47,071 nucleotides of DNA from Candidatus Omnitrophota bacterium (GTDB lineage: Bacteria > Omnitrophota > 4484-213), in NCBI GenBank assembly GCA_021158625.1, contig JAGGUG010000126.1, positions 1-47,071 on the forward strand. The letters run 5' to 3'. How positions within the stretch are numbered: position 1 is the first letter of the stretch; every line of letters begins with the position of its first letter. This document shows, piece after piece, positions 3,564 to 47,071 of this stretch. Under the pieces are notes generated by a model. That model worked only from the letters and a program-made list of their open reading frames with translations. It did not search any database and was not told the origin of the DNA. Made by a program: the position numbers and the translations under genes.

Positions 3564-3564
3564 A

Positions 3565-3615
3565 CCCAGCACTAATTTTCTGCTACGATTAAGCATCCTG
3601 AAAAATTAGTGCTGG
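3565..3615. repeat. Family B inverted-repeat element
   Basis: CCCAGCACTAATTTT-N22-AAAATTAGTGCTGG. Confidence 0.8.
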
Positions 3616-3652
3616 CTAAATTCAACTAAGCTCCGAAACTTCGAAGCAAGTT

Positions 3653-4681: not shown

Positions 4682-4786
4682 CAGGCTACAGACTCAAGAG
4701 AGTCGCCAGGACACCAGTCTCCAGTCACCAGTGGTTTTTCTGGTGACTTGGTGACCTGGCAACTGGTGACCTTCTGTATCTTGTGA
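4682..4786. repeat. Family C low-complexity hairpin (CCAGTCACC / GGTGACTTGG words)
   Basis: It fills the alaS-lptB gap. CTGGTGACCTGG-type words recur at 35100-35135. Confidence 0.65.
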
Positions 4787-10435: not shown

Positions 10436-10955
10436 TTTTCTCCAGTTTCGGAAGGTCGCTTAGCGACCTTAAACCAAAATACTGCAAAAAATGGGAAGTT
10501 GTGCGGTAGATTAAGGGTCTACCCAGCGTTTCTTTTCTACCAGCAATCCTAATCAATTTTTTTTCGGTGAGCAATCTCAAAATTCCCCCTACCTCCACTC
10601 CTCTTATAACTTCGATATCGGCACGGGTTACTGGCTGACGATAGGCAATAATAGATAAGGTTTCTAAAGCAGCGGCAGAAAGTTTCTCTTCTCGCTCTCT
10701 TCTGGCTATCCTTTTTAACCAGGGAGCATAAAGAGGTAAGGTGCAAATTTGAAACCCTTGGGCAATCTCTACAATCTGAAAACTCCGTCTCTCCTTCGCA
10801 TATTCATTTTTCAATTCCTCAATAATCTCTCTTATTGCCTTATTTCCGAGCCTTAAAACCTTATTTAGCCCTTCAATTAACAAGGGTTTAGGGCTAGCAA
10901 ATAAGGCAGCTTCAATTATTCTCTTCGCTTCCTCCCTACTTATCGGTTTCTCCAT
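10395..10955 (-). CDS. scpB: Segregation and condensation protein B
   Basis: ScpB motifs IIEAALFAS and LSIIAYRQPVTRADIEVIRGV are present. I prefer the internal ATG at 10955 (MEKPISREE), because the track start at 11036 would overlap scpA by 100 nt. Confidence 0.85.
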   Translation of the reverse strand: MEKPISREEAKRIIEAALFASPKPLLIEGLNKVLRLGNKAIREIIEELKNEYAKERRSFQIVEIAQGFQICTLPLYAPWLKRIARREREEKLSAAALETLSIIAYRQPVTRADIEVIRGVEVGGILRLLTEKKLIRIAGRKETLGRPLIYRTTSHFLQYFGLRSLSDLPKLEKNEREKIRDTSPRD

Positions 10956-11730
10956 ATATAGAGTGAGCCTCGCCCTTTCTGCTTTCAGGAAATTCTCTGG
11001 GATAAGAAGGGGCGGGATAAATCCAAATTTCTCCAAAGAGTCCCTCTTGGCGGACAGTTATCTGCTCCGTCTTTATTAATTCCAGAGTAGCCAAGAAAAT
11101 AACAATCATCTCTGTTTTAGTCTCTGCTGATTGGAATAACTTTCTTAGAGAAATGAAAGATTCGTTTTTTAACCTATTTAAAATTTGCGAAATCTTATCG
11201 CGGATAGTCCATTTTTCTTTAACTAGTTTAATCTCTTTGTCTGGGATAAACGAGGAAATTTGAGCAAAAGCAGTGATTAAATCCTGAATATTTACCCTCT
11301 CTTGCTTGGTACTGTCCTCCTTGGTATCTTCCTCTATTTTCATTCTTGGGCGGCCAAAAAACAAACTCCGTTCCTCCTCCTTACTTCTTAACTCCTTTGC
11401 TATATTTTTAATCTGCTCATAGGCCCAGAGTTTTTGCTCCAAAAGATTCTCCAGATTCTCCTTTTCCTCGTCGGGAGCAACTTCTCTTTTTGGCAGAAGT
11501 GAAACCGACTTCAAAAAAATCAAACTGGAAAAAATTAATAAAAAATCCGCGGCAATATCTATACTTCCCTGAAAATCTAATAGCCAATCAAGATACTGAT
11601 TGACTATTTCCATCAAGGAGAAATTGCAGATATCCAATCTTTCTTCCTTAACTTGTTGGAGAAGAATCCTTGGTTCTCCAGAAAATCCCTCTAATTCTAA
11701 TTTCAAATTTAAATTCTCTATGTATTGCAT
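10936..11730 (-). CDS. scpA: Segregation and condensation protein A
   Basis: The ScpA N-terminus is FSGEPRILLQQVKEERLDICNFSLMEIVNQYLDW. I prefer the ATG at 11730 (MQYIENL), which is preceded by AAGGGGA. The track start at 11763 overlaps trpS. Confidence 0.82.
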   Translation of the reverse strand: MQYIENLNLKLELEGFSGEPRILLQQVKEERLDICNFSLMEIVNQYLDWLLDFQGSIDIAADFLLIFSSLIFLKSVSLLPKREVAPDEEKENLENLLEQKLWAYEQIKNIAKELRSKEEERSLFFGRPRMKIEEDTKEDSTKQERVNIQDLITAFAQISSFIPDKEIKLVKEKWTIRDKISQILNRLKNESFISLRKLFQSAETKTEMIVIFLATLELIKTEQITVRQEGLFGEIWIYPAPSYPREFPESRKGEAHSIYGETDK

Positions 11731-13244: not shown

Positions 13245-13324
13245 GGCAGTAGGCAGTAAGCAGTAGGCAATAGGCAGTTGGCAGTAGGCAACTTCTTGTA
13301 TATTAGCTTTTTCTTGTCTGCTGC
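13245..13324. repeat. Heptamer-like tract (GGCAGTA)n with a pairing partner
   Basis: ggcagtaggcagtaagcagtaggcaataggcagttggcagtaggcaa pairs with cttgtctgctgc using G:T pairs. An inverse copy CTACTGCCTACTG lies at 32659-32671. Confidence 0.6.
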
Positions 13325-13367: not shown

Positions 13368-13448
13368 TCCCTTAGAAATATACATAGAAACTTCAGCCAG
13401 AACTTTTAAAGACCTCTCTTACATTATAACAGGAGTTTTCTAACGGGG
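13368..13448. repeat. Family A palindromic element (degenerate left arm)
   Basis: TCCCTTAGAAA ... TTTTCTAACGGGG. The right arm encodes the glyA end ...PLPR-TAG. Confidence 0.5.
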
Positions 13449-14723
13449 CAAGGGGAATTTTGCTACTAATCTATCTACTTCTTTAGTTACCTCTGCGATT
13501 ACTTCTTCGTCATTGATATTACTGATTACCCTGTCAATCAAATGAGCAATTTTTTTCATCTCCTCTTCTTTCATCCCCCGCGTGGTCACCGCCGGTGTGC
13601 CGAGGCGAATCCCACTGGTCACAAAAGCACTTTGGCTATCAAAGGGAATTAAATTCTTGTTTACAGTAATTCTTGCCTTGTCTAGGGCAGTAGTGGCATC
13701 CTTGCCGGTTATCTTTCTACTGGCGAAAACATCTACAAGCAGCAAGTGATTATCTGTCCCGCCGGAAACAATTCTATAATTTAGTCTTTTTAACTCCTCG
13801 GATAGCACAGCCGCATTTCGAACAATCTGGCGTTGATATTGTTTGAACTGCTCACTCAAGGCCTCTCTAAATGCTACTGCTTTGGCAGCGATAACATGCA
13901 TAAGGGGTCCCCCCTGGATTCCCGGAAAAACCGCAGCATCAATCTTTTTCCCAAATTCCTTTCGGCATAAAATCATCCCTCCCCGTGGGCCTCTTAGCGT
14001 TTTATGAGTGGTGGTGGTAATAAATTCAGCATAAGGAACAGGGTCAGGATGAAGTTTTGCCGCTATCAAACCAGCAATGTGGGCCACATCTGCCATTACA
14101 AATGCCCCACTTTTATCGGCAATCTCTCGCAGTCTCTTAAAATCAATTATTCGTGGATAAGCAGAGGCGCCAACCAGAATCATCTTCGGTTTATTTTTTT
14201 TAGCCAGCTCCTCTAATTCATCATAGTCAATCTTTTCATCTCTCGGGCTAACACCGTAAGGAATAATCTGAAAATACTTCCCCGAGTAATTTAAAGGATG
14301 ACCATGGGTTAGATGCCCGCCATGAGCCAGATTCATTGCCAGGACCTTATCTCCCGGCTTCAGCATTGCAAAATAAACGGCCATATTTGCCTGCGCCCCC
14401 GAATGGGGCTGGACATTGACATATTCGGCTCCAAAGAGTTCCTTTGCCCGTTCGATGGCTAAGGATTCGGCAACATCGACGAACTGGCAGCCCCCATACC
14501 AGCGCCTTCCCGGATAGCCCTCGGCATATTTATTGGTCAAAACCGAGCCTTGAGCTTCTAATACTGCCTGGCTCACAAAATTCTCCGAAGCAATTAGTTC
14601 AATATTTTCCTGCTGTCTTTTGAGCTCATTTTGAATTGCCTCGAAAATCTCATTATCGACCACCTTTAACTGCTCATTTACCCTCTTAGAGGTTTGTTCA
14701 TTAACGACTAACTTTTCTTCCAT
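13440..14723 (-). CDS. glyA: Serine hydroxymethyltransferase
   Basis: 427 aa. ELIASENF and the PLP-Lys motif [14 protein letters not shown] are present. The last codons and the TAG stop lie in a family A repeat arm. Confidence 0.95.
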
Positions 14724-14766: not shown

Positions 14767-14786
14767 ATCAGTTTGCTCTTGCCTTT

Positions 14787-14821
14787 ACCTTGTTAGAAAG
14801 TCCCGCCCTTTCTAACGGGGT
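14787..14821. repeat. Family A short hairpin
   Basis: ACCTTGTTAGAAAG-tcccgcc-CTTTCTAACGGGGT. The last 9 codons and the TAA stop of dnaE are read from it. Confidence 0.7.
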
Positions 14822-17800
14822 TTACTTCCACCGTTACTCTTTCTTTTCCTATTAACTGCTCGAGTTGAAGAAGAAAACTTTCAGTGCACTTAGCGGTTAA
14901 GGAAGAGCGAACAGTATGCTTTCCTCGGGGGGAGGAGAAGATTAAATAAAGGGGAACATCCCCGGGGTGAGCAGAAACAAGCCTTTTTATCTCGCGAAGA
15001 AGATTTTCATCGCTGTCTGCTTCTAAATTCAGAGAAATAGAAGCAGTGTATTTCTGAGAGATTTGCTCTATTGGAATTAATTTCTCAGCAATTATCTTGC
15101 GTTCATTATTTCTTAAACTAATCCTTCCTTCGACGAAGATTGGAGCATCTATTTTAACATAATTGCTTACTTTATTAAAGACCTTTGGAAAAAGGATAAT
15201 CTCAATCGCCCCATTAGAAATCTCTAAATTAAAAAAAGCCATCTTCTCCCCGCGTTTGGTAACAATTTGTTTAATCTTAGTAATAACTCCCCCGACTAAC
15301 ACCTCTTCGTTTTCGCTGTAGTTATTTAATTCAGTAAAGGAAACGGAATATCTCTTCAGCACCTGCTCATACTCTGCTAAGGGATGACCGCTGAAATAAA
15401 AGCCCAGAAGCTCTTTTTCAAAGGCCAATAACTGATTGCGCGGCCATTCTTTTATTGTTATCTTTTTCTTTTCTTTTCGAGGTTCAAAGTAAGAGAGATT
15501 ATCAAGAAGGGATAATTGCCCCCGACTTTTATCTCTTTGGAGCCGATTTGCCCTCTGGAGGCTACCTTCTAAATCCACTATTAACTGAGCTCGTGGCAAA
15601 TTGAAACAATCAAATGCTCCGCATTTTATCAAACTCTCAATTACCTTTTTATTTACGAGTCTCAGATCTACTCGCTGACAAAAGTCTTCTAAAGAAGAAA
15701 ATTTCTTTTTTGTCCTCGCTTTAATAATAGAATCGATTGCTCCCCTTCCTACATTCTTCACTGCTAACAAACCAAATCTGATGCTATCTTTCTCAACAGT
15801 GAATTCAGCAAAAGATTGTTGAACATCGGGAGGTAAGATTCTTATACCCATCTTCCTGCATTCTTCTACATAATCAGCAATCTTGTCCGTATTATCCTCT
15901 TCACTGGTTAATAAAGCAGCCATAAACTGGAGAGGATAATTTGCCTTTAAATAAGCTGTCCGGTAAGAAATAAGGGCATAGGCGGCGCTATGGCTTTTAT
16001 TAAAACCATAGCCGGAAAAATATTCGATAAGATTAAATACTTTTTCCGCTACTCTTCTTCGTATCCCATTTTTTAGGCATCCTTCAACAAAAGATTCTTT
16101 TTGTTGCTCGATGACTTCGGGAATCTTTTTGCTTATTGCCCGACGCAGTAAATCTGCTTGAGTTAAACTAAACCCGGCCAGAATATGAGCAATTTGCATT
16201 ATTTGTTCCTGGTAGAGGATAATTCCATAGGTCTCTTTTAAGATTGGTTCCAACTTAGGATGGTCGTATTTAATTAATTTAGGATTGTGTTTTCTCTGAA
16301 CGAAATCATTAATCATTCCACTCCCTAAAGGACCTGGGCGATGCAAAGCGAGAATAGCTATAATATCCTCAAAATTCTGGGGTTCAATCCTCTTCAATAA
16401 ATCCTGCATTCCTCCACTTTCTAATTGAAACACCCCTATCGATTTCCCCTTGCAAAGCAGATGATAAGTCTTTTTATCGTCAAGAGGAATACTCTCAACA
16501 CTGATTTCTTTTTCGGAAAACCTCCTTATGTTTTCTATTGTTTTACTAATTACCGTTAAAGTACGCAGTCCTAAAAAGTCCATCTTTAAGAGACCAATCT
16601 TTTCCAGAGAAAACATAGAATACTGAGTAGCAATCTTCCCATCAGGGCTTTTAAACAAAGGCACAATGTCGCTCAGGGGCTGCTTGGAAATTACAACTCC
16701 GGCTGCATGGGTAGAGGCGTGCCGGGTTAATCCCTCCAGGCTCTTAGAGATATCCAACAATCGTTTTATCTGCTCGTCCTGCTCGTAAAGCTCCTTTAGG
16801 CGTGGCTCCTGATAAAGTGCTTCTTGAATGGTAATATTGAGCGTTAAAGGAACTAGCTTAGCAATCCTATCTACTTCTGAATAAGGCATCCCCATTACCC
16901 TGCCGACATCTCTGATTACTCCATGCGCGGCCATTGTACCGAAAGTAATTATTTGAGAAACATTTTCTTTGCTATATTTTTGAGTGACATAGTCAATCAC
17001 CTCATCCCTGCGCTGATAACAGAAATCAATATCAATATCGGGCATCGTTATCCGCTCATAGTTCAAAAACCTTTCAAATAAAAGATTATATTTCAGAGGA
17101 TTGATATCGGTTATTCCTAAGACATAAGCGACTAAACTCCCGGCCACAGAACCTCTACCGGGCCCAACGGCAATATTATTCTTCTTAGCAAAGTTAATAA
17201 AATCCTGCACAATAAGGAAGTAAGATGCATAACCAGACTCTTCAATTATTTTTAACTCCTGGTTCATTCTCTGAATAACCTCTTCATTTACCCTGTTAAA
17301 TAATTCGCTTGGGCGAACAGTGCCTTTGGCGGATTTAATAGGGTTTATCGCATTAAATTGCGCCTTTGCCGCCCCCCCGATGGAGGTGTCGGGGGATTCG
17401 GGCTGAACCTCTTTAAACCTTTCTTTCAACCTCTGCTGACAGAGTTCTTTAAGGTATTCTTTATCTGTTAGACCCTCGGGGGGAGAAAAAACAGGCATAT
17501 ACTTCTTACTAAAATCGAGCTCGAGATTGCATTTATTAACGACCTTTAGCGTATTGGTCAAAGCAGAGGGAATTTCTGAAAATAACTCCTTCATCTCTTC
17601 TTCACTCTTGAGATAAAATTCATTGGTAGAGAATCTCATTCTTTTAGGGTCATCTAAGGTAGTTTGCGTTTGAAGACAGAGAAGGATTTCATGGCTGTAG
17701 CTATCAGATTTATGTAAATAATGCACATCATTTGTAGCTACTAATTCTATATTCATCTCCTTTGCTATCTTAATCAACTCTCTATTTATCTTTTTTTGTT

Positions 17801-18386
17801 CAGGGATTAATTGGTCCTGAAGTTCTAAATAAAAATTATCTTTTCCAAATATATCCTGAAAGTCAATAATTGCTTTTTTGGCTTTATCGATCTGGTCATT
17901 AATAATATAATTGGGAATCTCTCCATGGAGACATCCACTGAGCCCAATAAGTCCCTCTGAATACTGAGATAAAATTTCTTTGTCTATTCTTGGTTTATAA
18001 TAGAAACCTTCTAAATAAGCCGCTGTAGCGAGTTTAACCAAATTTTTATATCCTTTTAGGTCTTTTACTAACAGAGTGAGATGTTTTCTTCCTCTCTTTT
18101 CCACTTCTGGATCTCGGTTGAATCTGCTTTCCGGAGCAAGATAAGCCTCATAGCCAATTATTGGCTTTATCCCCTGTTTCATTGCTTCCTGATAAAACTC
18201 AATTGCCCCAAACATATTTCCGTGGTCAGTAATGGCGATAGCCGGAAATTTTAATTCTATGCTTCTCTTGATTAAGTCAGGGAGTTTACAGGCGCCATCG
18301 AGAAGACTGTATTGGCTATGAACATGAAGGTGAGCGAAATTTGCGTGAGTCACGTTTTGGTAGGGAGGTGTTGGTTTGGTTACCAA
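14793..18386 (-). CDS. dnaE: DNA polymerase III alpha subunit
   Basis: 1197 aa. PHP FAHLHVHSQYSLLDG, GPGRGSVAGSLVAYVLGIT and PDIDIDF are present. The track start at 18386 is TTG, and a GVG-type alternative (GTG at 18353, giving MTHANFAHL) matches the usual N-terminal length. It contains an in-frame repeat insertion and ends inside a repeat hairpin. Confidence 0.93.
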   Translation of the reverse strand: MVTKPTPPYQNVTHANFAHLHVHSQYSLLDGACKLPDLIKRSIELKFPAIAITDHGNMFGAIEFYQEAMKQGIKPIIGYEAYLAPESRFNRDPEVEKRGRKHLTLLVKDLKGYKNLVKLATAAYLEGFYYKPRIDKEILSQYSEGLIGLSGCLHGEIPNYIINDQIDKAKKAIIDFQDIFGKDNFYLELQDQLIPEQKKINRELIKIAKEMNIELVATNDVHYLHKSDSYSHEILLCLQTQTTLDDPKRMRFSTNEFYLKSEEEMKELFSEIPSALTNTLKVVNKCNLELDFSKKYMPVFSPPEGLTDKEYLKELCQQRLKERFKEVQPESPDTSIGGAAKAQFNAINPIKSAKGTVRPSELFNRVNEEVIQRMNQELKIIEESGYASYFLIVQDFINFAKKNNIAVGPGRGSVAGSLVAYVLGITDINPLKYNLLFERFLNYERITMPDIDIDFCYQRRDEVIDYVTQKYSKENVSQIITFGTMAAHGVIRDVGRVMGMPYSEVDRIAKLVPLTLNITIQEALYQEPRLKELYEQDEQIKRLLDISKSLEGLTRHASTHAAGVVISKQPLSDIVPLFKSPDGKIATQYSMFSLEKIGLLKMDFLGLRTLTVISKTIENIRRFSEKEISVESIPLDDKKTYHLLCKGKSIGVFQLESGGMQDLLKRIEPQNFEDIIAILALHRPGPLGSGMINDFVQRKHNPKLIKYDHPKLEPILKETYGIILYQEQIMQIAHILAGFSLTQADLLRRAISKKIPEVIEQQKESFVEGCLKNGIRRRVAEKVFNLIEYFSGYGFNKSHSAAYALISYRTAYLKANYPLQFMAALLTSEEDNTDKIADYVEECRKMGIRILPPDVQQSFAEFTVEKDSIRFGLLAVKNVGRGAIDSIIKARTKKKFSSLEDFCQRVDLRLVNKKVIESLIKCGAFDCFNLPRAQLIVDLEGSLQRANRLQRDKSRGQLSLLDNLSYFEPRKEKKKITIKEWPRNQLLAFEKELLGFYFSGHPLAEYEQVLKRYSVSFTELNNYSENEEVLVGGVITKIKQIVTKRGEKMAFFNLEISNGAIEIILFPKVFNKVSNYVKIDAPIFVEGRISLRNNERKIIAEKLIPIEQISQKYTASISLNLEADSDENLLREIKRLVSAHPGDVPLYLIFSSPRGKHTVRSSLTAKCTESFLLQLEQLIGKERVTVEVNPVRKGGTF
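17289..17343. repeat. Family A element inside the dnaE CDS (in frame)
   Basis: ACCCTGTTAAAT ... ATTTAATAGGGT, encoding NPIKSAKGTVRPSELFNRV. Confidence 0.75.
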
Positions 18387-21344: not shown

Positions 21345-21389
21345 GCTGTACGAATTTCCGCCGTCGCCAAGGCTTTGGCGGACAAGGAA

Positions 21390-21487
21390 CCCAGCACTAA
21401 TTTTCATAGAAATCAGTGATTGCTTTGTTTGAAAATATAAGGTTGTTATTTATAGATTAATTTTGTGTCTCAAAAATTAGTGCTGGG
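21390..21487. repeat. Family B inverted-repeat element (long interior)
   Basis: CCCAGCACTAATTTT-N68-AAAATTAGTGCTGGG. Confidence 0.8.
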
Positions 21488-24266: not shown

Positions 24267-24372
24267 CAGGCTACAAGTTTCAGGCTACATCTGCCCGCCA
24301 TCTCGCAGGTGAAGGGGCTTCGGGCTTTTTTGTTTTTTAGCCTGCAACTTGCGGCTTGTAGCTTGCAGCTTG
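24267..24372. repeat. Family C low-complexity hairpin
   Basis: caggctacaagtttcaggctaca ... agcctgcaacttgcggcttgtagcttgcagcttg. It spans the leuA 3' end to the aroE start. Confidence 0.7.
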
Positions 24373-25853
24373 TTTACCGCCTCCAGATATGCCTTTGCGC
24401 TTGCTTCAATAATATCGGTGCTTGCCCCGCGGGCGGTAATTATCTCATCCTTAAATCGAACCTTAATGCTAACCTCTCCGAGGGCATCCTTCCCCGAAGT
24501 AATTGCCTGCAAAGAATAATCCAGGAGTTTCCCCTTTAACCCCGTAATTCTTTCAATTGTTTTATAACAAGCATCAATAGGGCCATCGCCACAGGCAGAG
24601 TCTTCTAATATTTCCTCACCCTTTTTCAGTCTTATCGTCGCTGTAGGCACAGTTTTATTCCCGCTACTGATATGGATGTATTCTAATTGCCAGACCTGGG
24701 GAATCCTCTTTTTGACTTCATCTAAAATTATCTCTAAATCCTCATCGAAAACCTCTTTCTTTTTATCAGCAATTTGCTTAAATTGAATAAAGAATTTGGC
24801 AAATTCCTTTTTTGTCAGATGATAACCCATCCTTTTTAGATGTTCCTCTAATGCGTGACTACCTGAATGCTTACCCAAGACCAATCGACTTTCTTTTACC
24901 CCTACATCTTTGGGGTTAATTATTTCATAAGTTGTTCTCTTCTTCAGAATTCCATCCTGATGGATTCCGGCTTCGTGGGCAAAGGCATTGCTTCCGACAA
25001 TAGCCTTATTGGGTTGAACTGGAATGCCTGTAAGATGGCTGACCAAATGGCTAACCTTAAACAGCTCCTCGGTTTTTATATTCGTCTCCCTTCGGAAGAT
25101 CTCCGGATGCAGTTTTATATTCATCACCACTTCTTCCAACGAGGCATTGCCAGCGCGTTCGCCAATGCCGTTGACCGTGCACTCAACCTGGTTAGCCCCC
25201 TCTTCCACGGCAGCTAAGGAGTTAGCCACAGCCAGTCCTAAATCGTTATGGCAATGCACACTCAAGTTAACATCCTTAAAAGAAATTTGTTGTCTCAGGT
25301 CTCTGATTAGTTTAGTAAATTGGGATGGGAAAATGCAGCCTACCGTGTCTGGGATATTGATGGTAGTCGCTCCGGCCGCAATTGCCGCCTGAACTACCTC
25401 CACCAAAAAATTAAAATCGGTGCGCGTAGCGTCCTCGGGAGAAAACTCAATGTCGTCGATAAAGCGCCTCGCATATCTTATACTCTCCACAGTCAACCTC
25501 AGAATCTCCTCCTTTGCCTTTTTTAATTTGTATTTTAGATGAATCTCAGAGGTAGCGCAAAAGATATGAAGGCGCGGTTTATTTGCCTTATCCAAGGCTT
25601 TTAGACAACAATCAATATCCTTCGTGAGGGTGCGCGCTAATCCGGCAATTATCGGCTTCTTTACCTTTCTGCAGATCTCTCTGATTGCCTCTATCTCCCC
25701 CGGTGAAGAAGCCGGATAACCAGCCTCAATTATATCCACATTAAGACGAGCAAGCTGTTCGGCAATGCTCAATTTCTGCTCGGGAGTCAAACTTGCTCCT
25801 GGTGACTGCTCGCCATCTCTAAGAGTTGTATCAAATATCAGTATTTTGTCCAT
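24285..25853 (-). CDS. leuA: 2-isopropylmalate synthase (or the closely related citramalate synthase)
   Basis: 522 aa. LRDGEQSPG, HCHNDLGLAVANSLAAVEEGA and a C-terminal LeuA dimerisation/regulatory domain are present. The last ~26 codons are read from a family C repeat. Confidence 0.88.
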   Translation of the reverse strand: MDKILIFDTTLRDGEQSPGASLTPEQKLSIAEQLARLNVDIIEAGYPASSPGEIEAIREICRKVKKPIIAGLARTLTKDIDCCLKALDKANKPRLHIFCATSEIHLKYKLKKAKEEILRLTVESIRYARRFIDDIEFSPEDATRTDFNFLVEVVQAAIAAGATTINIPDTVGCIFPSQFTKLIRDLRQQISFKDVNLSVHCHNDLGLAVANSLAAVEEGANQVECTVNGIGERAGNASLEEVVMNIKLHPEIFRRETNIKTEELFKVSHLVSHLTGIPVQPNKAIVGSNAFAHEAGIHQDGILKKRTTYEIINPKDVGVKESRLVLGKHSGSHALEEHLKRMGYHLTKKEFAKFFIQFKQIADKKKEVFDEDLEIILDEVKKRIPQVWQLEYIHISSGNKTVPTATIRLKKGEEILEDSACGDGPIDACYKTIERITGLKGKLLDYSLQAITSGKDALGEVSIKVRFKDEIITARGASTDIIEASAKAYLEAVNKLQATSRKLQAKKQKSPKPLHLRDGGQM

Positions 25854-27065: not shown

Positions 27066-27117
27066 AATTTAGGCGACCCCGAAGTTTCGGGGGAGGCTAA
27101 ATTGTATGGCGGAATTG

Positions 27118-27138
27118 ACCCAGCACTAATTTTCTGCT
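27118..27138. repeat. Family B solo left arm
   Basis: ACCCAGCACTAATTTTCTGCT is identical over 21 nt to 3564-3584. Confidence 0.7.
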
Positions 27139-27156
27139 GCGGTCTAAACCATCATA

Positions 27157-29800: not shown

Positions 29801-29868
29801 GCCTGCCGGCTACAAGCTACAGGCTTCAGGTTTTTTAAGCGCGGGCTTGAGGCTTGTTGCTTGCAACC
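29801..29868. repeat. Family C low-complexity hairpin
   Basis: caggcttcagg (29820-29830) pairs with cttgaggcttg (29846-29856) through 8 Watson-Crick pairs and 3 G:T pairs on the plus strand. Confidence 0.7.
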
Positions 29869-30575
29869 AAAGAAAGTTCCTTCTTTATCTTCTTCATATC
29901 CTCCCAAACTGGAATCTTCCCTTGAGGGTTGCGCAGGAGATAGGCGGGATGAAATGTAGGAATCAGTTTTACCCTGTTAAATAATTTCGTTGAAGGCGAA
30001 ATTCCGCCGCCTAAGGCGAGGGAATTAACAGGGTGAATCCCTTCATAATCATAAAATTTTCCTCTTAATTGTGAGATGGGAGAAACCACACCAAGCAGGG
30101 TTTGAGCGGCAAATTTCCCCAATGCACAAATTATCTGCGGACGGATTATCCTTATTTGCTCTTTTAAATAAGGAAGGCAATTTTCAATCTCCTGAGGCAG
30201 AGGATTGCGGTTTCCCGGCGGTCGGCACTTTAGGATATTGGTAATATAGACATCTTCTCTCTTTAGACCTATGGACTGGATGATTCGGGTAAGGAGTTGT
30301 CCGGCTTTACCCACAAATGGTTTTCCTTGCCTATCTTCCTCCTCTCCGGGCGCCTCTCCGACAAATAATAGAGAGGCCTCGTTATTTCCCTCGCCAAATA
30401 CATAATGTGTTTTAGTTCTGGCAAGTGGGCACTTTGTACATTGGTGTACTCTTTGAGAAAGAAGCTCGAGCTCTTGAGAAGGAGAAATAGAAGGAGAAAA
30501 GAACTCCTCTATGCCGGCGAGCCTCTCTCCCTCTAAAAAGGTTTTGAGAGAGTCAATTATCTCTTTGTCTTTCAT
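29835..30575 (-). CDS. Uracil-DNA glycosylase, family 4, carrying an in-frame repeat insertion
   Basis: 246 aa. CTKCPL, GEAPGEEED, FVGKAGQLL and PTFHPAYLLRNP are present. The C-terminal tail (SNKPQARA) is read from a family C repeat. Confidence 0.88.
   Translation of the reverse strand: MKDKEIIDSLKTFLEGERLAGIEEFFSPSISPSQELELLSQRVHQCTKCPLARTKTHYVFGEGNNEASLLFVGEAPGEEEDRQGKPFVGKAGQLLTRIIQSIGLKREDVYITNILKCRPPGNRNPLPQEIENCLPYLKEQIRIIRPQIICALGKFAAQTLLGVVSPISQLRGKFYDYEGIHPVNSLALGGGISPSTKLFNRVKLIPTFHPAYLLRNPQGKIPVWEDMKKIKKELSLVASNKPQARA
29971..30034. repeat. Family A element inside the UDG CDS (in frame)
   Basis: ACCCTGTTAA ... TTAACAGGGT, encoding HPVNSLALGGGISPSTKLFNRV. Confidence 0.8.
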
Positions 30576-31257: not shown

Positions 31258-31262
31258 AGATA

Positions 31263-31392
31263 AGCTTCAAGCTGCAGGCTTTCAGGTCGCAGGCTACAGG
31301 TTTTAAGTTTTCTGTTTTTGACCTGCAGCTTGGAGCTTGAGACTTGAGGCTTATTAGCTTGCAGCTTGCGGTTTGTAGCCTGTAACCTGTAG
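31263..31392. repeat. Family C long hairpin
   Basis: aagcttcaagctgcaggctttcaggtcgcaggctacagg ... cctgcagcttggagcttgagacttgaggctt ... It lies between a promoter-like site and tRNA-Arg. Confidence 0.7.
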
Positions 31393-34192: not shown

Positions 34193-34612
34193 TTACCCCA
34201 ACGCTTCAATCGCCTTATCATTATCTTCAGCCTTCAAAATAAAACGACAGGGAGAAGCGCCCTCAGAAACAGTGCCATAGCAATACAGTAGATTAACACC
34301 TGCCGATTTTAATTTCGTCCCAATCTGACTCAGTGCACCTATCTTATTTTCTAAATCAATCCTTACCACTTCTTCCTCTTCAACCTGCCACCCCTTTGTT
34401 TTAAGAGCGGGGATAACTTTCTGATTTTCCGAAGTAATGATGTAAAACTTCGCTTTTCCCTCTAAACCATAGGCATTGATTGCTTCAATATTCACATCTG
34501 TCTCGCTTATGGCTTGACTTACCTCGGAAAGCATCCCAACCTTATCTTCCGTAGTTACAACTAATTGACTTATCTTTATACCTGACTTCGGGTCAAGTTC
34601 TCTTTCTGTCAT
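34193..34612 (-). CDS. Tandem ACT-domain protein
   Basis: The ATG at 34612 is preceded by GGAGGTGGAA. There are two ACT-like repeats (VTTEDKVGMLSEVSQAI and DLENKIGALSQIGTKL). The track ORF extends 97 aa further through GC-rich repeats. Confidence 0.75.
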   Translation of the reverse strand: MTERELDPKSGIKISQLVVTTEDKVGMLSEVSQAISETDVNIEAINAYGLEGKAKFYIITSENQKVIPALKTKGWQVEEEEVVRIDLENKIGALSQIGTKLKSAGVNLLYCYGTVSEGASPCRFILKAEDNDKAIEALG

Positions 34613-34623
34613 TTCCACCTCCT

Positions 34624-34726
34624 TTCCTTCCTCGCCGAAGGCGAGAGCCGACGAGTGCGCGAGCGAAGCGAGCAAGCGAGGAGGATAGCCCCGACGGAAG
34701 CGTCGGGGCGCTGTTCCATCTTCCTT
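34624..34726. repeat. GC-rich 103-nt direct repeat, copy 1
   Basis: It is identical by eye to 34808-34910 (offset 184 nt). It is made of GAAG-loop hairpins: CTCGCCGAAGGCGAG and CCCCGACGGAAGCGTCGGGG. Confidence 0.85.
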
Positions 34727-34807
34727 ACTCGCGAAGCGAGCCCTGAACCGTTCTGGTGCAGGGCGAGAGCCGAAGCCCCGAAACTTCGGGACGCCTTTTG
34801 TTTTTTC

Positions 34808-34910
34808 TTCCTTCCTCGCCGAAGGCGAGAGCCGACGAGTGCGCGAGCGAAGCGAGCAAGCGAGGAGGATAGCCCCGACGGAAGCGTCGGGGCGCTGTTC
34901 CATCTTCCTT
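34808..34910. repeat. GC-rich 103-nt direct repeat, copy 2
   Basis: See copy 1. The plus-strand track ORFs at 34655 and 34839 share the same first 24 aa. Confidence 0.85.
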
Positions 34911-35020
34911 TTCGCTGTAAGGCGAAGGGTTTCTCCTCGCGAAGCGAGAGCCGAAGTTTTCCGACGATATGTCAGAGAGTTGAGAATAGAAATTTGCGGA
35001 GCAAATTTTGTTATCTTTTT

Positions 35021-35049
35021 ACTTTACTACACAATACCAACTTTGTCAA
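35021..35049 (-). promoter_or_regulatory. Sigma70-like promoter upstream of the GC-rich leader and ACT gene
   Basis: Minus strand TTGACA-17 nt-TAAAGT. Confidence 0.45.
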
Positions 35050-35089
35050 CCCTGTTAAATTCGTGTAGCGACTATTTAGTAGGATTGAC
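35045..35089. repeat. Family A element (right arm degenerate)
   Basis: GTCAACCCTGTTAAAT ... TTTAGTAGGATTGAC. Confidence 0.5.
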
Positions 35090-35908: not shown

Positions 35909-35982
35909 GGCCGGCTAAACCCCGTTAGGAACGTTGCTAAATAATTTCATTTTGGAAGGATTTCTAACGGGGTAAACCGGCC
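35909..35982. repeat. Family A element with extended arms
   Basis: GGCCGGCTAAACCCCGTTAG ... CTAACGGGGTAAACCGGCC, 16 nt downstream of the cspA stop. Confidence 0.8.
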
Positions 35983-36262: not shown

Positions 36263-36291
36263 AGCATATACTATTCTTTTCTACTTGTCAA
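36263..36291 (-). promoter_or_regulatory. Sigma70-like promoter upstream of cspA
   Basis: Minus strand TTGACA-17 nt-TATGCT, about 55 nt upstream of the cspA ATG. Confidence 0.6.
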
Positions 36292-36347
36292 CCCTGTTAA
36301 ATAGCCTGGGGCAATTCGGCCATAGGTGAGTTATTAACAAGGTTGAC
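36287..36347. repeat. Family A element
   Basis: GTCAACCCTGTTAAAT ... ATTAACAAGGTTGAC. The left end supplies the cspA -35 box. Confidence 0.7.
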
Positions 36348-40466: not shown

Positions 40467-40500
40467 CGCAATACCTCCTGAAACCAATGTTCAATAAACT

Positions 40501-40684
40501 AAACCCCGTTAGAAAGGGCGGGGCTTTAATCCCGCCCTTTCTTAATAAAACATTTTTTCCCCGCCCACCCCGTTAGAGACCTTGCTAAAGATGGTTCAAT
40601 GTCATAAGACGAAGGTTTATCTCAAATAGCAAGAGTAGTCTCTAACGGGGCCCACGGAGGGGGGCTTTCTAAGGGGGTAAACCA
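40501..40684. repeat. Cluster of nested or tandem family A elements
   Basis: There are three components. (1) AAACCCCGTTAGAAAGGGCGGG-gctttaa-CCCGCCCTTTCTTAA. (2) ACCCCGTTAGAGAC-N57-GTCTCTAACGGGG, a perfect 13-bp inverted repeat at 40567-40650. (3) A solo arm CTTTCTAAGGGGGTAAACC. Confidence 0.75.
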
Positions 40685-40689
40685 TCTTT

Positions 40690-41457
40690 TTACGGCTTAC
40701 AAACCTTGCAAGGAATATATCCCTTATCTATTGCTTCCTGACGATTATTAAACCAAATTTGATTCTCTGGTTTTATTTTCTTAGCCCACATACACTCGGG
40801 TTTGTGAAATTTTTTAGACTTTTTATGTCCAACATATTTGCCTTTAAATGAAAATTTAGCAACAGGCAAAGTGACCCCTGTAGCAACTGGCAGCTTTTCT
40901 AATCTATTTTTATCTTTATACTCACAAGTATCAATATAAGTGCCGTCCCAGAATTTATTAAATTGCTCTCTGTATCTTCTGGCGAGTTCTCTGGACTTTA
41001 TTATCAGCACATTCTCGTCATTCCTTAAATCTGCACTGACAGTCCAGTTATATGAACCGGTGATAGTAATGTAGTCGTCAATAATACAAAATTTGTTATG
41101 CATAATACCGGAACCGCTTATTAATCTTATATTAACGCCCTTATTCTCTAAAAATTTACTCTTTGTGTATTCATAATGGGGTTGCTCCTCATCCAAACAG
41201 ACCTTAACATCTACGCCCCTATCCTTTGCTCTCACTAATGCCTGGGCTATAGGCCTTGAAGTAAAATAATACATTGCTACATAGACACAACTCCTGGCAT
41301 TATCAATTGCCGAAACAATTTCCTGAGCACAATTATCCTGCGGTGAGAATAAAACTTTTATTTGAGAGGTAGATTCAGAAAAGTTCTGAGCAGTAATTAA
41401 AGGAGAAAATGCAAAGATTGCGATGGATAATAAAACAAAAAATAAAAATTTTCTCAT
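40690..41457 (-). CDS. Secreted PLD-superfamily (Nuc-like HKD) nuclease with a C-terminal Cys/His metal-binding module
   Basis: 255 aa. It has a signal peptide and the HKD motif MHNKFCIIDDYITITGSYNWT. The C-terminus FHKPECMWAKKI...GYIPCKVCKP resembles the Ada-type zinc domain. Confidence 0.78.
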   Translation of the reverse strand: MRKFLFFVLLSIAIFAFSPLITAQNFSESTSQIKVLFSPQDNCAQEIVSAIDNARSCVYVAMYYFTSRPIAQALVRAKDRGVDVKVCLDEEQPHYEYTKSKFLENKGVNIRLISGSGIMHNKFCIIDDYITITGSYNWTVSADLRNDENVLIIKSRELARRYREQFNKFWDGTYIDTCEYKDKNRLEKLPVATGVTLPVAKFSFKGKYVGHKKSKKFHKPECMWAKKIKPENQIWFNNRQEAIDKGYIPCKVCKP

Positions 41458-41528
41458 ATTTCTTGCAGTTAATTATAATTAAACATCACCCGATTCTAAT
41501 GCACCTGCCTGCCGGTAGGCAGTTGTTT

Positions 41529-43521: not shown

Positions 43522-43531
43522 TTATAACTCA

Positions 43532-43568
43532 ACCCCATTAGATAGCGGCTTCGCCTATCTAACGGGGT
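43532..43568. repeat. Family A short hairpin
   Basis: ACCCCATTAGATAG-cggcttcgc-CTATCTAACGGGGT. It contains the pcm stop codon (..LPR-TAG). Confidence 0.75.
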
Positions 43569-44284
43569 AAATCTCTCTGCATAGGTACAAATCTCACCGG
43601 GATAATGCTTTCAATCTCGATCTTGCCGTCTTTTTTCTTGATGAGTTTTAATTCTTGATAGCGCTCGCCTAACGGAATAACCATCTTCCCACCCTCCTTT
43701 AATTGCTCAATGAGAGCCGGGGGTATCTGCTCGGGGGCGCAGGTAACAATAATCGCATCAAAGGGGGCATACTCTTCCCAACCAAGATAGCCATCGCCGC
43801 ATTTAACCTTGATATTTTCATAACCTAAACTTCTGAGCAACTTCTCGGCTTTTTGGGCTAAGCTGGGAAGGATTTCAATTGTGTAAACCTCGGCGGCTAA
43901 TTCGGCTAAGATTGCTGCCTGATAACCCGAGCCAGTGCCAATCTCCAGAACCCTTTCCTTGCCTGAAAGAGAGAGCAACTCGCTCATCAGGGCAACAATA
44001 TAGGGCTGCGAGATTGTTTGACCTTCGCCGATGGGTAAAGGGCTATCTATATAAGCCAGATGGCGATATTCCTGAGGCACAAACAGATGTCTTTTTATCT
44101 TACGCATCGCATTCAATACGGCTTTGTCCTTAATCCCTCTTGCCTCAATCTGAGAACTCACCATCTGCTCCCGCAAGTTCTTAAAATCTATCCTTCTTGA
44201 TGCCTTCAATGGCAAATCTTGCCCAAAAACAACCCTGGTGATTGCCAGGAATAAAATTAGGCCTACCAACCAAGTTTTATTCAT
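43559..44284 (-). CDS. pcm: Protein-L-isoaspartate O-methyltransferase with a signal/anchor sequence
   Basis: 241 aa with TISQPYIVA and the SAM motif [15 protein letters not shown]. The stop codon lies inside a family A hairpin. Confidence 0.9.
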
Positions 44285-46216: not shown

Positions 46217-46221
46217 TTCTT

Positions 46222-46253
46222 AACCTGAAGCTTGCAGCCTGTAACCTGAAGCT
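46222..46253. repeat. Family C single-arm copy
   Basis: aacctgaagcttgcagcctgtaacctgaagct, lying between murB and the patatin gene. Confidence 0.5.
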
Positions 46254-47071
46254 CATCCCCAAATCTCCACCTCCAGTTTTAAATGAGTATTAAACCTCTT
46301 TTGAACCTCTTTGCGCATTATTCTAATGAGGGCTAAGACATCCTCTGCTTTAGCCTTTTGGTTATGATTGATAATAAAATTGCTATGCCGAGAAGAAATC
46401 TCTGCTCCGCCTACTCTTCTTCCTTTTAAACCGCATTGCTCAATCAGCCAACCTGCTCCTTTTTTCCCTTCTGGATTCTTAAAGATGCAGCCTGCCGAAG
46501 AGAGGGTCAACTCCTGCGTCCTCTGGCGATAAGCAATAAAATCACCCATCTTCTTGGCAATTGCTTCTTTATCGGCTCTTTGCAGACTGAATTTTGCTTC
46601 TATGATAATATGGGGAAAATCCCTTTCTTTTTTTTCTCCATCAAGCATCTTCACATAATCAAGCACTTCCTTAATCCTTCTTTTGAAGGGATAAGATACG
46701 CTCAAATTTGTCTTTATTGCCCCGCCCACGGTAGCCGGAACCCCGACAACAAACTCCAATCCGCTCAATCCATTATCCCTGGCTACCTTTAGGGCTTCTG
46801 TCAGTTCTGCTCCGCCTCCACAACGCAAGCTTTGTCCTTCTCTTTTAACATAAGTGAACCCAGGGGAATTTAGGCGAATCACTATCCCTTTTACGCCGTT
46901 GTCCCTGACTAAAAGATTACTTCCCCTGCCGATGACAAAAAGAGGGATTTCTTCATCAACAGAAAATTTAACGAGTTTAGTTAAAGAAGGAATATCTGTC
47001 GGTTCAACCCAGGCTTCTGCCGGGCCACCCACCCCTAAAGTAGTATGCTTAGCAAGCGGCTCATCAAATAG
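46253..47071 (-). CDS. murB: UDP-N-acetylenolpyruvoylglucosamine reductase; the 5' end runs off the window
   Basis: The reading frame is open to the window edge (LFDEPLAKHTTLGVGGPAE...). SAGCIFKNP and GGAEISSRHSNFIINH are present. Confidence 0.9.
   Translation of the reverse strand, partial: LFDEPLAKHTTLGVGGPAEAWVEPTDIPSLTKLVKFSVDEEIPLFVIGRGSNLLVRDNGVKGIVIRLNSPGFTYVKREGQSLRCGGGAELTEALKVARDNGLSGLEFVVGVPATVGGAIKTNLSVSYPFKRRIKEVLDYVKMLDGEKKERDFPHIIIEAKFSLQRADKEAIAKKMGDFIAYRQRTQELTLSSAGCIFKNPEGKKGAGWLIEQCGLKGRRVGGAEISSRHSNFIINHNQKAKAEDVLALIRIMRKEVQKRFNTHLKLEVEIWG

Follow-up and report, generated by a model that had tools for sequence, protein, structure and literature searches.

According to PMC10969869, the RPE (Ogata et al. 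2000) is a palindromic repeat of ~100-150 bp, confined to Rickettsia, that lies in frame in unrelated housekeeping genes, leaves the frame open and contributes a peptide where the protein can tolerate one; no transposase for it is known. The element reported here shares all of these traits except size and host range: its core measures 36-65 nt, it carries an invariant arm of 12-15 nt, it occurs in many phyla, and it has a defined target (TTT^AY) with repeated insertions at one site. In behaviour it resembles an RPE; by length and host range it is a separate kind, smaller and spread across phyla. The bacterial MITEs of the DDE type (Correia/NEMIS, ERIC, Nezha; PMC10969869) are also short, non-coding, multicopy sequences with terminal inverted repeats, sometimes intragenic and sometimes supplying promoter or terminator signals, whereas the element here shows no target duplication, polar junctions, no parent IS within the loci searched, a much smaller size, and an interior conserved in structure and not in sequence. 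The REP/REPIN (RAYT) sequences and the palindrome-associated elements derived from IS200/IS605 (PMC3116915, PMC3733652) are likewise tiny hairpin repeats in which hairpin formation is the conserved property, and which use a short, fixed, one-sided target without duplication, as is also true of TTT^AY. However, the present element has neither a GTAG nor a CGTC head, every copy starting with ACCCTG; its conserved part is the outer stem and not the hairpins; ~13% of its copies lie within long ORFs, whereas REPs are extragenic; REP families are genome-specific and this one is cross-phylum; and neither a Y1 transposase gene nor a recurrent neighbouring gene family was seen in loci of ~8 kb. Against the IS200/IS605 pattern, it has two hairpins but with variable sequences and perfect terminal repeats, and no TnpA was identified in those ~8-kb loci. 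Integron attC sites are similar in size (from 57 nt up) and are folded single-stranded palindromes with conserved ends and a variable centre, and the arms here contain GTTAAAT (GTTRRRY) and ATTTAAC (RYYYAAC); the order and polarity of these core words are nevertheless inverted (GTTAAAT 5' and ATTTAAC 3' on either strand here, RYYYAAC 5' and GTTRRRY 3' in attC), and the copies, many of them intragenic, are scattered and do not form cassette arrays beside an integrase gene. The small dispersed repeats of cyanobacteria (Elhai et al. 2008, cited in PMC3116915) and the mitochondrial GC clusters and byp elements are also very small mobile palindromes able to sit in genes, but differ in sequence and host; unlike byp elements, which disrupt the frame and are bypassed, the copies described here are in frame and stop-free.

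The copy that is the subject of this report lies in dnaE of a Candidatus Omnitrophota bacterium, within a contig of 47,071 nucleotides (JAGGUG010000126.1), the whole of which was analysed and is referred to below as the window. The features of the locus are the following:

14793-18386, minus strand: dnaE, the host gene (DNA polymerase III alpha, 1197 aa), from its ORF and translation.
17290-17406, minus strand: the whole in-frame dnaE insertion, 117 nt, residues 327-365 (VQPESPDTSIGGAAKAQFNAINPIKSAKGTVRPSELFNR), from homologue alignment and the empty site.
17290-17346, minus strand: E2, intact element, 57 nt (55-nt core at 17290-17344 plus 2 nt), encoding NPIKSAKGTVRPSELFNRV, from the covariance model and RNA fold.
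17347-17406, minus strand: E1, GC-rich piece, 60 nt, from a half-site scan and fold architecture.
17374-17395, no strand assigned: GC hairpin CCCCCGA-TGGAGGTG-TCGGGGG within E1, from the sequence; paired in the minimum-free-energy fold.

Homologues of this DnaE carry the Pfam domains PHP, DNA_pol3_alpha, finger, HHH_6 and OB, and its AlphaFold2 model has a mean pLDDT of 83.6 and a pTM of 0.73. A preliminary description of this DNA had placed an inserted segment of about 40 extra residues in the variable linker adjoining the PHP domain; alignments with 11 and with 65 homologues bear this out and delimit a lineage-specific insertion of 39 residues. It is shared solely by the genome studied and a 97%-identical relative (L002/P0002), being missing from the ~90%-identical DnaE of L001 (P0003), which shows no other change there, from at least 60 other aligned Omnitrophota DnaEs, and from all more distant ones. 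At the DNA level, the empty site in L001 reads AAAGAAGT|AAATGAA, and the junction has up to 2 nt of play, reaching 17292-17408. The site is a linker of naturally variable length that joins the PHP and palm domains: the gap between matched stretches holds 56 residues in Taq Pol III alpha and ~2 in uninterrupted relatives. In our reading, which we hold with good confidence, the segment would be a mobile element and a putatively translated passenger, selfish DNA and not a part of the polymerase. It would have arisen by two tandem insertions of a tiny, non-autonomous palindromic element, the older of which (E1) has decayed while the other (E2) is intact.

E2 consists of ACCCTGTTAAAT, two mini-hairpins and ATTTAAYAGGGT, an arrangement that forms a three-way junction; its core is ACCCTGTTAAATAATTCGCTTGGGCGAACAGTGCCTTTGGCGGATTTAATAGGGT, whose minus strand in the dnaE frame gives the peptide listed above. 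The covariance model R1 recognizes it with 47.8 bits (E = 1.8e-11), and its RNA fold z is -3.1 for the sense and -5.1 for the antisense strand. The element had originally been placed at 17289-17343; it is real, but those coordinates are one base off. The 16-mer ACCCTGTTAAATAATT that it was said to share with a uracil-DNA glycosylase (UDG) gene does have a second exact occurrence there, at 29971-29986, and the full shared word is 18 nt, TTACCCTGTTAAATAATT; with up to 3 mismatches the 16-mer yields 5 matches against 1.15 expected, a number that none of 100 shuffles reaches. As had also been observed, the two copies have the same orientation, both on the plus strand inside minus-strand genes, and the common frame extends to both ends (DnaE, NPIK...LFNRV; UDG, HPVN...LFNRV). 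Three other copies were recognized in the window:

29971-30036, minus strand: sister copy in the family-4 UDG gene (29835-30575), a 66-nt in-frame insertion with a 64-nt core at 29971-30034, encoding HPVNSLALGGGISPSTKLFNRV, from alignment and the empty site.
36288-36346, no strand assigned: degenerate intergenic copy upstream of a cold-shock gene (R1 28.3 bits, E = 8e-6).
14784-14824, no strand assigned: variant-arm (CCCCGTTAG-type) hairpin element at the dnaE 3' end (R1 15.3 bits, E = 0.046).

The UDG copy, which scores 54 bits with R1, is missing from P0122 and 7 other homologues; its empty site, GGGAT|AAAAC, is found in two loci (L119 and L120), residues 181-199 of the protein have pLDDT < 50, and a sister genome has a UDG gene cut short where the element lies. 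One end of the intergenic copy adjoins a -35-like TTGACA, and its orthologue lies at 4700-4758 of another locus (L121). The variant-arm element provides the final codons and stop of dnaE (...VNPVRKGGTF*), a C-terminal tail that is missing in P0003 and in which residues 1192-1197 have pLDDT < 50. For element copies of L001 the window offers no clean empty sites, because the orthologous sites hold other repeats.

E1 is most probably an earlier insertion of a member of this family that has since decayed. Its sense-strand ends are TTCAGCCCG (TTCACCCCG in L002) and ATTTAATGCGAT, its GC hairpin sits in the stretch coding for ESPDTSIGGAAKAQFNAI, and the L002 version is predicted to fold into a closing stem with two hairpins; to the eye, the hairpins CCGAC..GTCGG and CG(G/T)CAAAGGCG look like types present in other family members. 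R1 leaves E1 undetected at E <= 10; a half-site scan over five loci finds E1 (in L002), true elements, and one mis-registered match on a true element, against a background of 0.02 matches per shuffled locus. The blank with R1 would also be expected if 17347-17406 were an unrelated GC-rich hairpin repeat or a lineage-specific expansion of the linker beside the element, as would the failure of BLAST to find a further E1 copy in the window, L001 or L002; a similar hairpin, CCCCGAC..GTCGGGG, occurs moreover in a GC-rich leader at ~34690. We nonetheless regard such an origin as improbable, as the L002 piece begins with TTCACCCCG, an exact match to TTYACCCYG right at the insertion boundary, its end ATTTAATGGGAT matches the arm at 9/12 positions, the scan otherwise yields true elements apart from the mis-registered match, the two-hairpin architecture is present, and a length of 60 nt preserves the frame by itself. 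Of the kinship formerly proposed between this segment and the GC-rich intergenic repeats of the window, the hairpin stands, but sequence similarity to those repeats does not accompany it, and E1 is better explained as a further copy of the element, now degenerate. Separately, a string in the GC part that resembles a tRNA 3' end (GAATCCCCCGACACCTCCA) was considered as a tRNA remnant and rejected as coincidence, the 3' end of the neighbouring tRNA-Met being unrelated and ARAGORN blank there.

The element belongs to a cross-phylum family and is not peculiar to the Omnitrophota genome studied. Its hosts are mostly Patescibacteria, and also Omnitrophota, WOR-3, Desulfobacterota and Bacteroidota, assignments taken from metagenome-assembled genomes whose labels may be wrong in places. 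More than 116 loci are found among the matches listed, nearly all with 12-nt arms where the pattern required only 10, and R1 gives 235 strand-hits in 704 kb. The arms, TT(T/C)ACCCTGTTAAAT ... ATTTAACAGGGT(G/A)AA, are 12-15 nt long and invariant, a constancy partly imposed by the search pattern; ACCCTGTTAAAT and ATTTAACAGGGT are complementary at 12/12 positions in most copies, which therefore possess terminal inverted repeats. Between them lie one or two short hairpins of variable sequence, the single strand folding as a three-way junction of ~55-58 nt. The inner hairpins show both-sided changes at 13/13 pairs, with a covariation score of 0.254 against 0.10 for shuffled controls (0/500 shuffles reach 0.254, and slid controls are lower), and interiors fold much better than shuffles (p = 1e-21). 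The two strands fold alike (p = 0.2), so that an RNA-only function is not favoured. Copies in WOR-3 and Stahlbacteria have arms of ~20 bp and interiors without hairpins. Rfam 15, run on the window and 7 loci, returned only tRNA and rRNA at the gathering score and only sub-threshold miRNA-type hairpin matches with an E-value threshold, and literature searches by DNA string, peptide string and concept gave no description of the element. Cultured plasmids (PLSDB) hold no full-length match and IMG/VR only 8 loci, which indicates that the element is not obviously plasmid- or phage-borne. In ~130 loci of ~8 kb each, no arm pairs occur at kilobase spacing as an autonomous parent would have, and all-against-all clustering of 1839 neighbouring ORFs yields only housekeeping genes as recurrent families and no recurrent transposase-like ORF; with no transposase or autonomous element bearing these arms, it is presence and absence alone that speak for mobility.

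Comparison of three empty/filled site pairs (dnaE, UDG and ksgA), together with the flanks of 67 oriented copies, demonstrates insertion without target-site duplication at TTT^AY, between its last T and the A, the opposite strand reading T^AAA. No duplication is seen at any of the three pairs, and none of 135 copies is flanked by direct repeats of at least 3 nt. In this 135-copy set the flanks are polar (TTT...GAA / TTC...AAA) 51 times and symmetric 13 times; read in canonical orientation, 63-67 of 67 copies have TTT on their left, and the right flank is G-A-A-Y. At all three junctions there is a 1-nt ambiguity (T), and two nucleotides are added on one side only. Each insertion is thereby seen to add the core length plus 2 nt, which means that cores of 3n+1 keep the reading frame; the verified insertions are indeed all multiples of three, at 117, 66, 60 and 60 nt.

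In conceptual translation, the arms are shown to read xPVK...FNRV without stops in one orientation and phase. Every copy called within a coding sequence is stop-free, and 15 of 18 such copies are in this frame, against 40% expected if stop-free frames were equally likely (p = 2.4e-4). The frame and orientation of intragenic copies, raised by the preliminary description as a matter for genome-wide comparison, are therefore strongly non-random, and its reading of an RPE-like in-frame element is supported; a preference for NNT|AAN codon pairs as targets could, however, produce the bias just as well as selection. The host ORFs resemble, by eye, ordinary housekeeping proteins, GatA and KsgA being confirmed against solved structures, and in-frame copies survive in surface loops of essential proteins. 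GatA was considered as proof of insertion and set aside, since alignment to the solved structure gives a variable region without a clean 20-residue insertion. The third independent gene with a clean case is ksgA of Patescibacteria, where the empty site AGAGT|AAAAAA corresponds to a filled AGAGT[TCACCCTG...CAGGGT]AAAAAA. The same junction is filled in orthologues 58-69% identical to one another, with differing interiors and arm variants, and this one site is evidently struck repeatedly by the element.

These same data bear on whether the element is translated. It could instead be cut from the mRNA, or bypassed by ribosomes as in T4 gene 60 or with mitochondrial 'byp'; in mitochondria of Magnusiomyces, small GC-rich mobile hairpins are bypassed, and a stable hairpin is predicted in the message here. 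A skipped segment, however, needs neither a length of 3n nor stop-free copies gathered mostly in one frame, both of which are observed, and no take-off/landing codon pair is evident, and we find such an explanation exceedingly hard to credit. Copies in the xPVK...FNRV frame would rather be tolerated, their peptide being translated, as predicted, into a disordered loop that drifts neutrally. In the AlphaFold2 model, residues 326-362 of DnaE have pLDDT < 50 and no secondary structure, and the insert is predicted to be a disordered loop. Between the window and L002, 23% of insert residues differ, compared with 1.8% elsewhere in DnaE (p = 1.6e-7), the ratio of non-synonymous to synonymous codon changes is 9:1 in the insert and 21:59 outside it (p = 1.6e-4), and each of the two lineages has already mutated one arm; the insert drifts neutrally. 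This is difficult to reconcile with an adaptive insert, whether as a functional peptide linker of DnaE or as a regulatory hairpin in mRNA or DNA, which might for instance pause translation or bind a protein. Such a role could account for the recurrence of the arm-encoded HPVK...FNRV in many proteins, for the filling of the same ksgA site in many lineages, and for the -35-like hexamers that adjoin some intergenic copies. Nine of the ten changed codons are nevertheless non-synonymous, disorder is predicted for the insert in both DnaE and UDG, the nearest relatives without it are otherwise unchanged, and in the sister genome UDG ends prematurely at the element; together these points leave adaptation very unlikely.

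Under the reading of a mobile passenger, the element would be mobilised in trans by a putative enzyme. Polar one-sided junctions, the lack of duplication and a hairpin ability that is equal on both strands point to a structure-specific enzyme with single-stranded or cruciform DNA as its substrate, tentatively of the HUH type ('peel and paste', as in IS200/IS605 and RAYT) and not DDE, although we would put this at somewhat under even. Perfect terminal inverted repeats are a hallmark of DDE transposition and not of IS200/IS605, and count against an HUH-type step, as do the WOR-3 copies with their longer arms and non-hairpin interiors. A classical DDE-type MITE, whose transposase binds double-stranded arms and moves it by cut-and-paste, leaving a duplication that is absent or of 1 nt and with inner hairpins as incidental filler, would accommodate the perfect 12-15-bp repeats, the ~20-bp arms and hairpin-free interiors of WOR-3/Stahlbacteria, and the 1-nt (T) ambiguity at all three junctions. 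We consider it unlikely, given the polar flanks, the 0/135 copies with direct repeats, the two nucleotides added on one side, hairpins that covary and fold far better than shuffles, and the failure to find an IS with these arms in the ~130 loci or a full-length match in cultured plasmids. In the reading of a mobile passenger, insertion would also recreate T^AAA at its own 3' side, which would explain the younger E2 beside AAAT. More speculatively, and held as less likely than not, there may exist a pan-phylum transposition system in which a structure-specific single-strand nuclease or recombinase carries a folded three-way junction of ~58 nt into TTT^AY; its length (3n+1, plus 2) and arms would have evolved for life in essential genes of reduced-genome bacteria (Patescibacteria, Omnitrophota), and it would reseed the same permissive sites, adding xPVK...FNRV loops across proteomes.

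To our knowledge, Rickettsia has been essentially the one source of examples of in-frame selfish DNA in essential genes; the same behaviour is now seen in an unrelated and much smaller element that many uncultured phyla share, the candidate phyla radiation among them. What is new is a cross-phylum family with invariant arms, covarying hairpins, polar insertion at TTT^AY without duplication, in-frame copies in housekeeping genes, and repeated insertion in ksgA. The element inflates and diversifies proteins derived from metagenomes; in markers (DnaE, KsgA, FtsZ and GatA among them) it produces 'lineage-specific inserts' that are spurious. Genes can be truncated by it, the sister UDG being an example, and its presence or absence lends itself to the tracking of strains. 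With a defined target, polar junctions without duplication and structurally conserved hairpins, the question of what moves these tiny palindromes is open to testing by biochemistry and phylogenetic profiling, and the recurrent ksgA insertions provide a natural experiment on insertion-tolerant sites in proteins.

A short palindrome lies in frame within dnaE in the window, which has a G+C content of 40.6% and carries almost all of its genes on the minus strand, and a sister copy is found in a second gene. An origin in Candidatus Omnitrophota agrees with the DnaE and UDG homologues of named source, all labelled Omnitrophota or Omnitrophica. The two genes are:

14793-18386, minus strand, dnaE, 1197 aa
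29835-30575, minus strand, gene for a family-4 uracil-DNA glycosylase (UDG), containing the sister copy of the element

Since each of the features reported in a preliminary description of the sequence could be located, everything that it described is present. The palindrome, which had been placed one base off its true position of 17290-17344, is translated in the dnaE frame as NPIKSAKGTVRPSELFNRV; an exact second occurrence of its first 16 nt lies at 29971-29986 within the UDG gene, as had been claimed, and the reported GC hairpin, CCCCCGA/TGGAGGTG/TCGGGGG, lies at 17374-17395. The figure of about 40 extra residues in this linker agrees with alignments to 11, then 65 homologues, which delimit, as that description had proposed doing, a 39-residue segment (residues 327-365) confined to the window protein, the 100%-identical entry P0001, and P0002, the 97%-identical protein of a relative (locus L002); it is missing from P0003, which is ~90% identical over the alignment, and from all other aligned Omnitrophota DnaEs. 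At the empty dnaE site of the relative that lacks it, L001 (AAAGAAGT^AAATGAA, ^ marking the point of insertion), the window and L002 hold 117 additional bases.

In solved structures, the insert maps between residues 323 and 380 of Thermus aquaticus Pol III alpha, where a 56-residue gap separates the matched stretches and uninterrupted relatives have ~2 residues, and ahead of E. coli residue 319, a site that, going by the literature, we take to be the linker joining the PHP and palm domains. In an AlphaFold2 model of DnaE (mean pLDDT 83.6, pTM 0.73), residues 326-362 show no secondary structure and score below 50 in pLDDT. When the window is compared with L002, residue differences amount to 9/39 (23%) in the insert and 21/1138 (1.8%) in the remaining DnaE (Fisher p = 1.6e-7), nucleotide divergence to 8.5% and 2.4% elsewhere in dnaE, and non-synonymous to synonymous codon changes to 9:1 and 21:59 elsewhere (p = 1.6e-4). 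Judged on these comparisons of sequence, the dnaE insert is a passenger, and the conservation of its frame points to its being translated.

The palindrome belongs to a widespread family. A scan of species-representative genomes with ACCCTGTTAA-N15-45-TTAACAGGGT returned at least 116 loci, the chance expectation for the whole genome collection being, by our own estimate, fewer than 20 sites. The 12-nt arms (ACCCTGTTAAAT / ATTTAACAGGGT), present in all but a few of the matches listed, surround one or two short hairpins that vary in sequence from one genome to another, and 55 and 58 nt are the commonest element lengths. Hosts among the matches listed are mostly Patescibacteria of many classes, together with Omnitrophota (four genomes), WOR-3, Stahlbacteria, Cloacimonadota, Desulfobacterota (including contigs of 4-6 Mb), Bacteroidota and Spirochaetales; the labels of metagenome-assembled genomes may be imperfect, and with ~8 kb covered per locus there may be more copies and a wider range of taxa than those counted here, which are minimum values. 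Matches in Neobacillus and Larkinella, devoid of the AAAT extension and of a hairpin interior, look like chance. Viral contigs yielded only eight element loci and cultured plasmids no full-length copy, no Rfam family matches the element, and targeted literature searches found no description of it. On a complete Nealsonbacteria chromosome (L035, 1197-1254), a copy lies in the rRNA operon spacer, ~30 nt ahead of the point where the 23S rRNA gene begins.

In a 33-sequence alignment, 13/13 inner pairs show changes on both sides, with a covariation score of 0.254 versus 0.10 when shuffled; none of 500 shuffles reached 0.254 and slid controls scored lower, the outer stem being uninformative because the search pattern had fixed it. 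Interiors, with two hairpins in 85/136 and one in 44/136, fold far better than their own shuffles (p = 1e-21), and both strands fold equally well (p = 0.2), which speaks for a palindrome at the DNA level rather than an RNA of one strand. The covariance model built from this alignment recovers both window copies (54 and 47.8 bits), gives 235 strand-hits in 704 kb of loci, with three copies in 8 kb of Omnitrophica bacterium 4484_213, and detects weaker copies in the window, where a variant whose two arms carry compensating changes (ACCCCGTTAG... / ...CTAACGGGGT) is frequent:

36288-36346, weaker element copy
35046-35088, weaker element copy
35916-35976, weaker element copy
43529-43571, weaker element copy
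14784-14824, weaker element copy

The dnaE insert comprises an intact copy (E2, 57 nt), in which one arm has already mutated in each lineage, and an adjoining GC-rich piece (E1, 60 nt, 17347-17406), both multiples of three in length. The earlier likening of the GC-rich half to the GC-rich intergenic repeats finds no support in sequence, no further copy of the 60 nt being found in the window, L002 or L001 (the relative without the insert), and the covariance model gives no match to it. The L002 version opens with TTCACCCCG, which fits TTYACCCYG perfectly and starts right at the insertion boundary, closes with ATTTAATGGGAT (9/12 arm matches), and folds into a closing stem and two hairpins; by eye, the hairpins CCGAC...GTCGG and CG(G/T)CAAAGGCG resemble types in other members. 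A scan of ~116 kb for such half-site pairs otherwise returned true elements and one mis-registered match on a true element (35931-35976), with a chance level of 0.02 matches per shuffled locus. On account of the half-sites, the fold and the familiar hairpin types, E1 is interpreted as a decayed copy, older than E2.

An identical junction is seen in three independent comparisons of an empty with a filled site:

dnaE, GAAGT^AAATG
UDG gene, GGGAT^AAAAC
ksgA of Patescibacteria, AGAGT^AAAAAA

In all three, TC and the core stand between T and AAA, the added DNA equals the core length plus 2 nt (with a 1-nt ambiguity), and no target is duplicated. Across 135 copies, no direct flank repeats of 3 nt or more were found, and polar flanks TTT...GAA (TTC...AAA on the other strand) number 51 versus 13 symmetric pairs. 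The left flank is TTT in 63-67 of 67 oriented copies and the right flank G-A-A-Y, a polarity from which the target is reconstructed as TTT^AY; interior orientation is not tied to it (14 vs 6). With a terminal T on the inserted unit and AAA directly after it, insertion would recreate the target at its own 3' side, which would fit a younger E2 adjoining AAAT.

Presence and absence at these sites suggest that the element is mobile. Searches of ~8 kb per locus found no autonomous partner, neither arm pairs at kilobase spacing nor a recurrent transposase-like family among 1839 neighbouring ORFs. If the element is a mobile passenger, single-strand transposition of the IS200/IS605 or RAYT type is the route that we tentatively prefer: the element resembles these systems in its one-sided target, in a hairpin-forming ability that is conserved on both strands, and in the lack of duplication, which also sets it apart from DDE MITEs. 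Movement by a DDE mechanism, which the perfect terminal repeats recall, is only somewhat less favoured.

Long open reading frames run through 18 of ~131 copies, and 15 of the 18 share one orientation and frame, reading (H/N/Y)PVK...FNRV(K/N), a bias that the preliminary description had suggested looking for. One frame has TAA in both arms, and with AAATAATT placed 5' the preferred frame is likewise interrupted by TAA; the preferred frame is observed in 83% versus 40% predicted from the remaining open combinations with 3n+1 cores (p = 2.4e-4), cores that are over-represented overall (63/131). From their sequences, the hosts are read as housekeeping proteins: GatA, KsgA (these two alone compared with solved structures), the FtsZ linker, phosphoglycerate kinase, cysteine desulfurase, Dus, ThiI, glycosyltransferases and TolQ.

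KsgA is the cleanest insertion case. In Patescibacteria (L007 4881-4938, L130, L131, L132), the same codon, after LAKRV, is filled in several orthologues, and proteins 58-69% identical either have no insert or carry one at exactly that codon. Carriers differ in element interior, with arms that are perfect in two, a compensated variant in one and decayed in one. Given the neutral decay of arms in dnaE, the perfect arms in divergent KsgA hosts speak for independent insertions, repeated at a single permissive target, not one ancient event, which would make this codon a recurrent hot spot.

The UDG copy is an insertion of 66 nt (22 residues), missing from eight homologues, one of them 79-84% identical; UDG residues 181-199 are predicted to be disordered. 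In 4484_213 (L121, 10815-10882), the UDG frame ends directly after the element (KLFNR, then stop); unrelated AT-rich repeats take the place of the 3' part of the gene, whose 5' end has merged with the HAD-phosphatase gene upstream. Either the gene has decayed at the boundary of the element or the assembly is chimeric. This otherwise collinear sister genome also lacks a PLD-family nuclease gene with an Ada-type zinc finger (40690-41457), located in a window block (40467-41502) bounded by CCCCGTTAG-type elements.

At 36288-36346 and 35046-35088, upstream of a cold-shock gene and an ACT-domain gene, the end of an element joins a -35-like hexamer (ATTTAACAGGGTTGACA), with a plausible -10 after it; the element may form an outward-facing hybrid promoter. 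The ACT-domain gene is preceded by a ~400-nt GC-rich leader packed with mini-hairpins with UUCG- and GAA-type loops, including identical 103-nt copies at 34624-34726 and 34808-34910, 184 nt apart; the ORF calls in this stretch (34193-34903, minus strand; 34655-35068, plus strand) are likely to be partly spurious. A second dispersed repeat (ACCCAGCACTAATTTTC...) occurs at 3564-3623, 21357-21412 and 27112-27141, one copy holding a nested 30-nt GC-hairpin that L002 (95-97% identical) lacks; L002 also shows several 41-62-nt indels of other small repeats. At the scpA 3' end, different palindromic elements occupy the same position, CCCGCCCCTTCT...AGAAAGGGCGAGG in the window (~10930-11010) versus the ACCCTGTTAAAT type in L001 (11525-11564). 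Intergenic repeats of 7-nt period (GCTTGNA / CAGGCTT types) lie at several gene boundaries, and a tandem array of GGCAGTA x 6.6 is also present; neither is related to the palindromic element. The positions are:

2410-2486, 7-nt-period repeat
24267-24374, 7-nt-period repeat
29803-29834, 7-nt-period repeat
31259-31391, 7-nt-period repeat
46217-46257, 7-nt-period repeat
13245-13290, further position for these repeats

Among known systems, REP/REPIN sequences differ in having a GTAG or CGTC head and in being extragenic, attC sites in the inverted order of the core words, and bypass elements in that the present element is in frame and stop-free. Rickettsia palindromic elements are selfish palindromes maintained in frame within essential genes (PMC10969869); functionally the element is the same phenomenon, outside that family and set apart from it by size, hosts and anatomy. 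The last ~ten codons and stop of dnaE (...VNPVRKGGTF) fall within a variant-arm hairpin element (ACCCCGTTAGAAAG..., 14784-14824), in a C-terminal tail missing from the ~90%-identical relative, and the neighbouring SHMT gene and pcm take their TAG stops from CCCCGTTAG (13440-13450, 43529-43571). The location of these three stops inside such elements suggests that the elements remodel the C-termini of proteins as well as their interiors.
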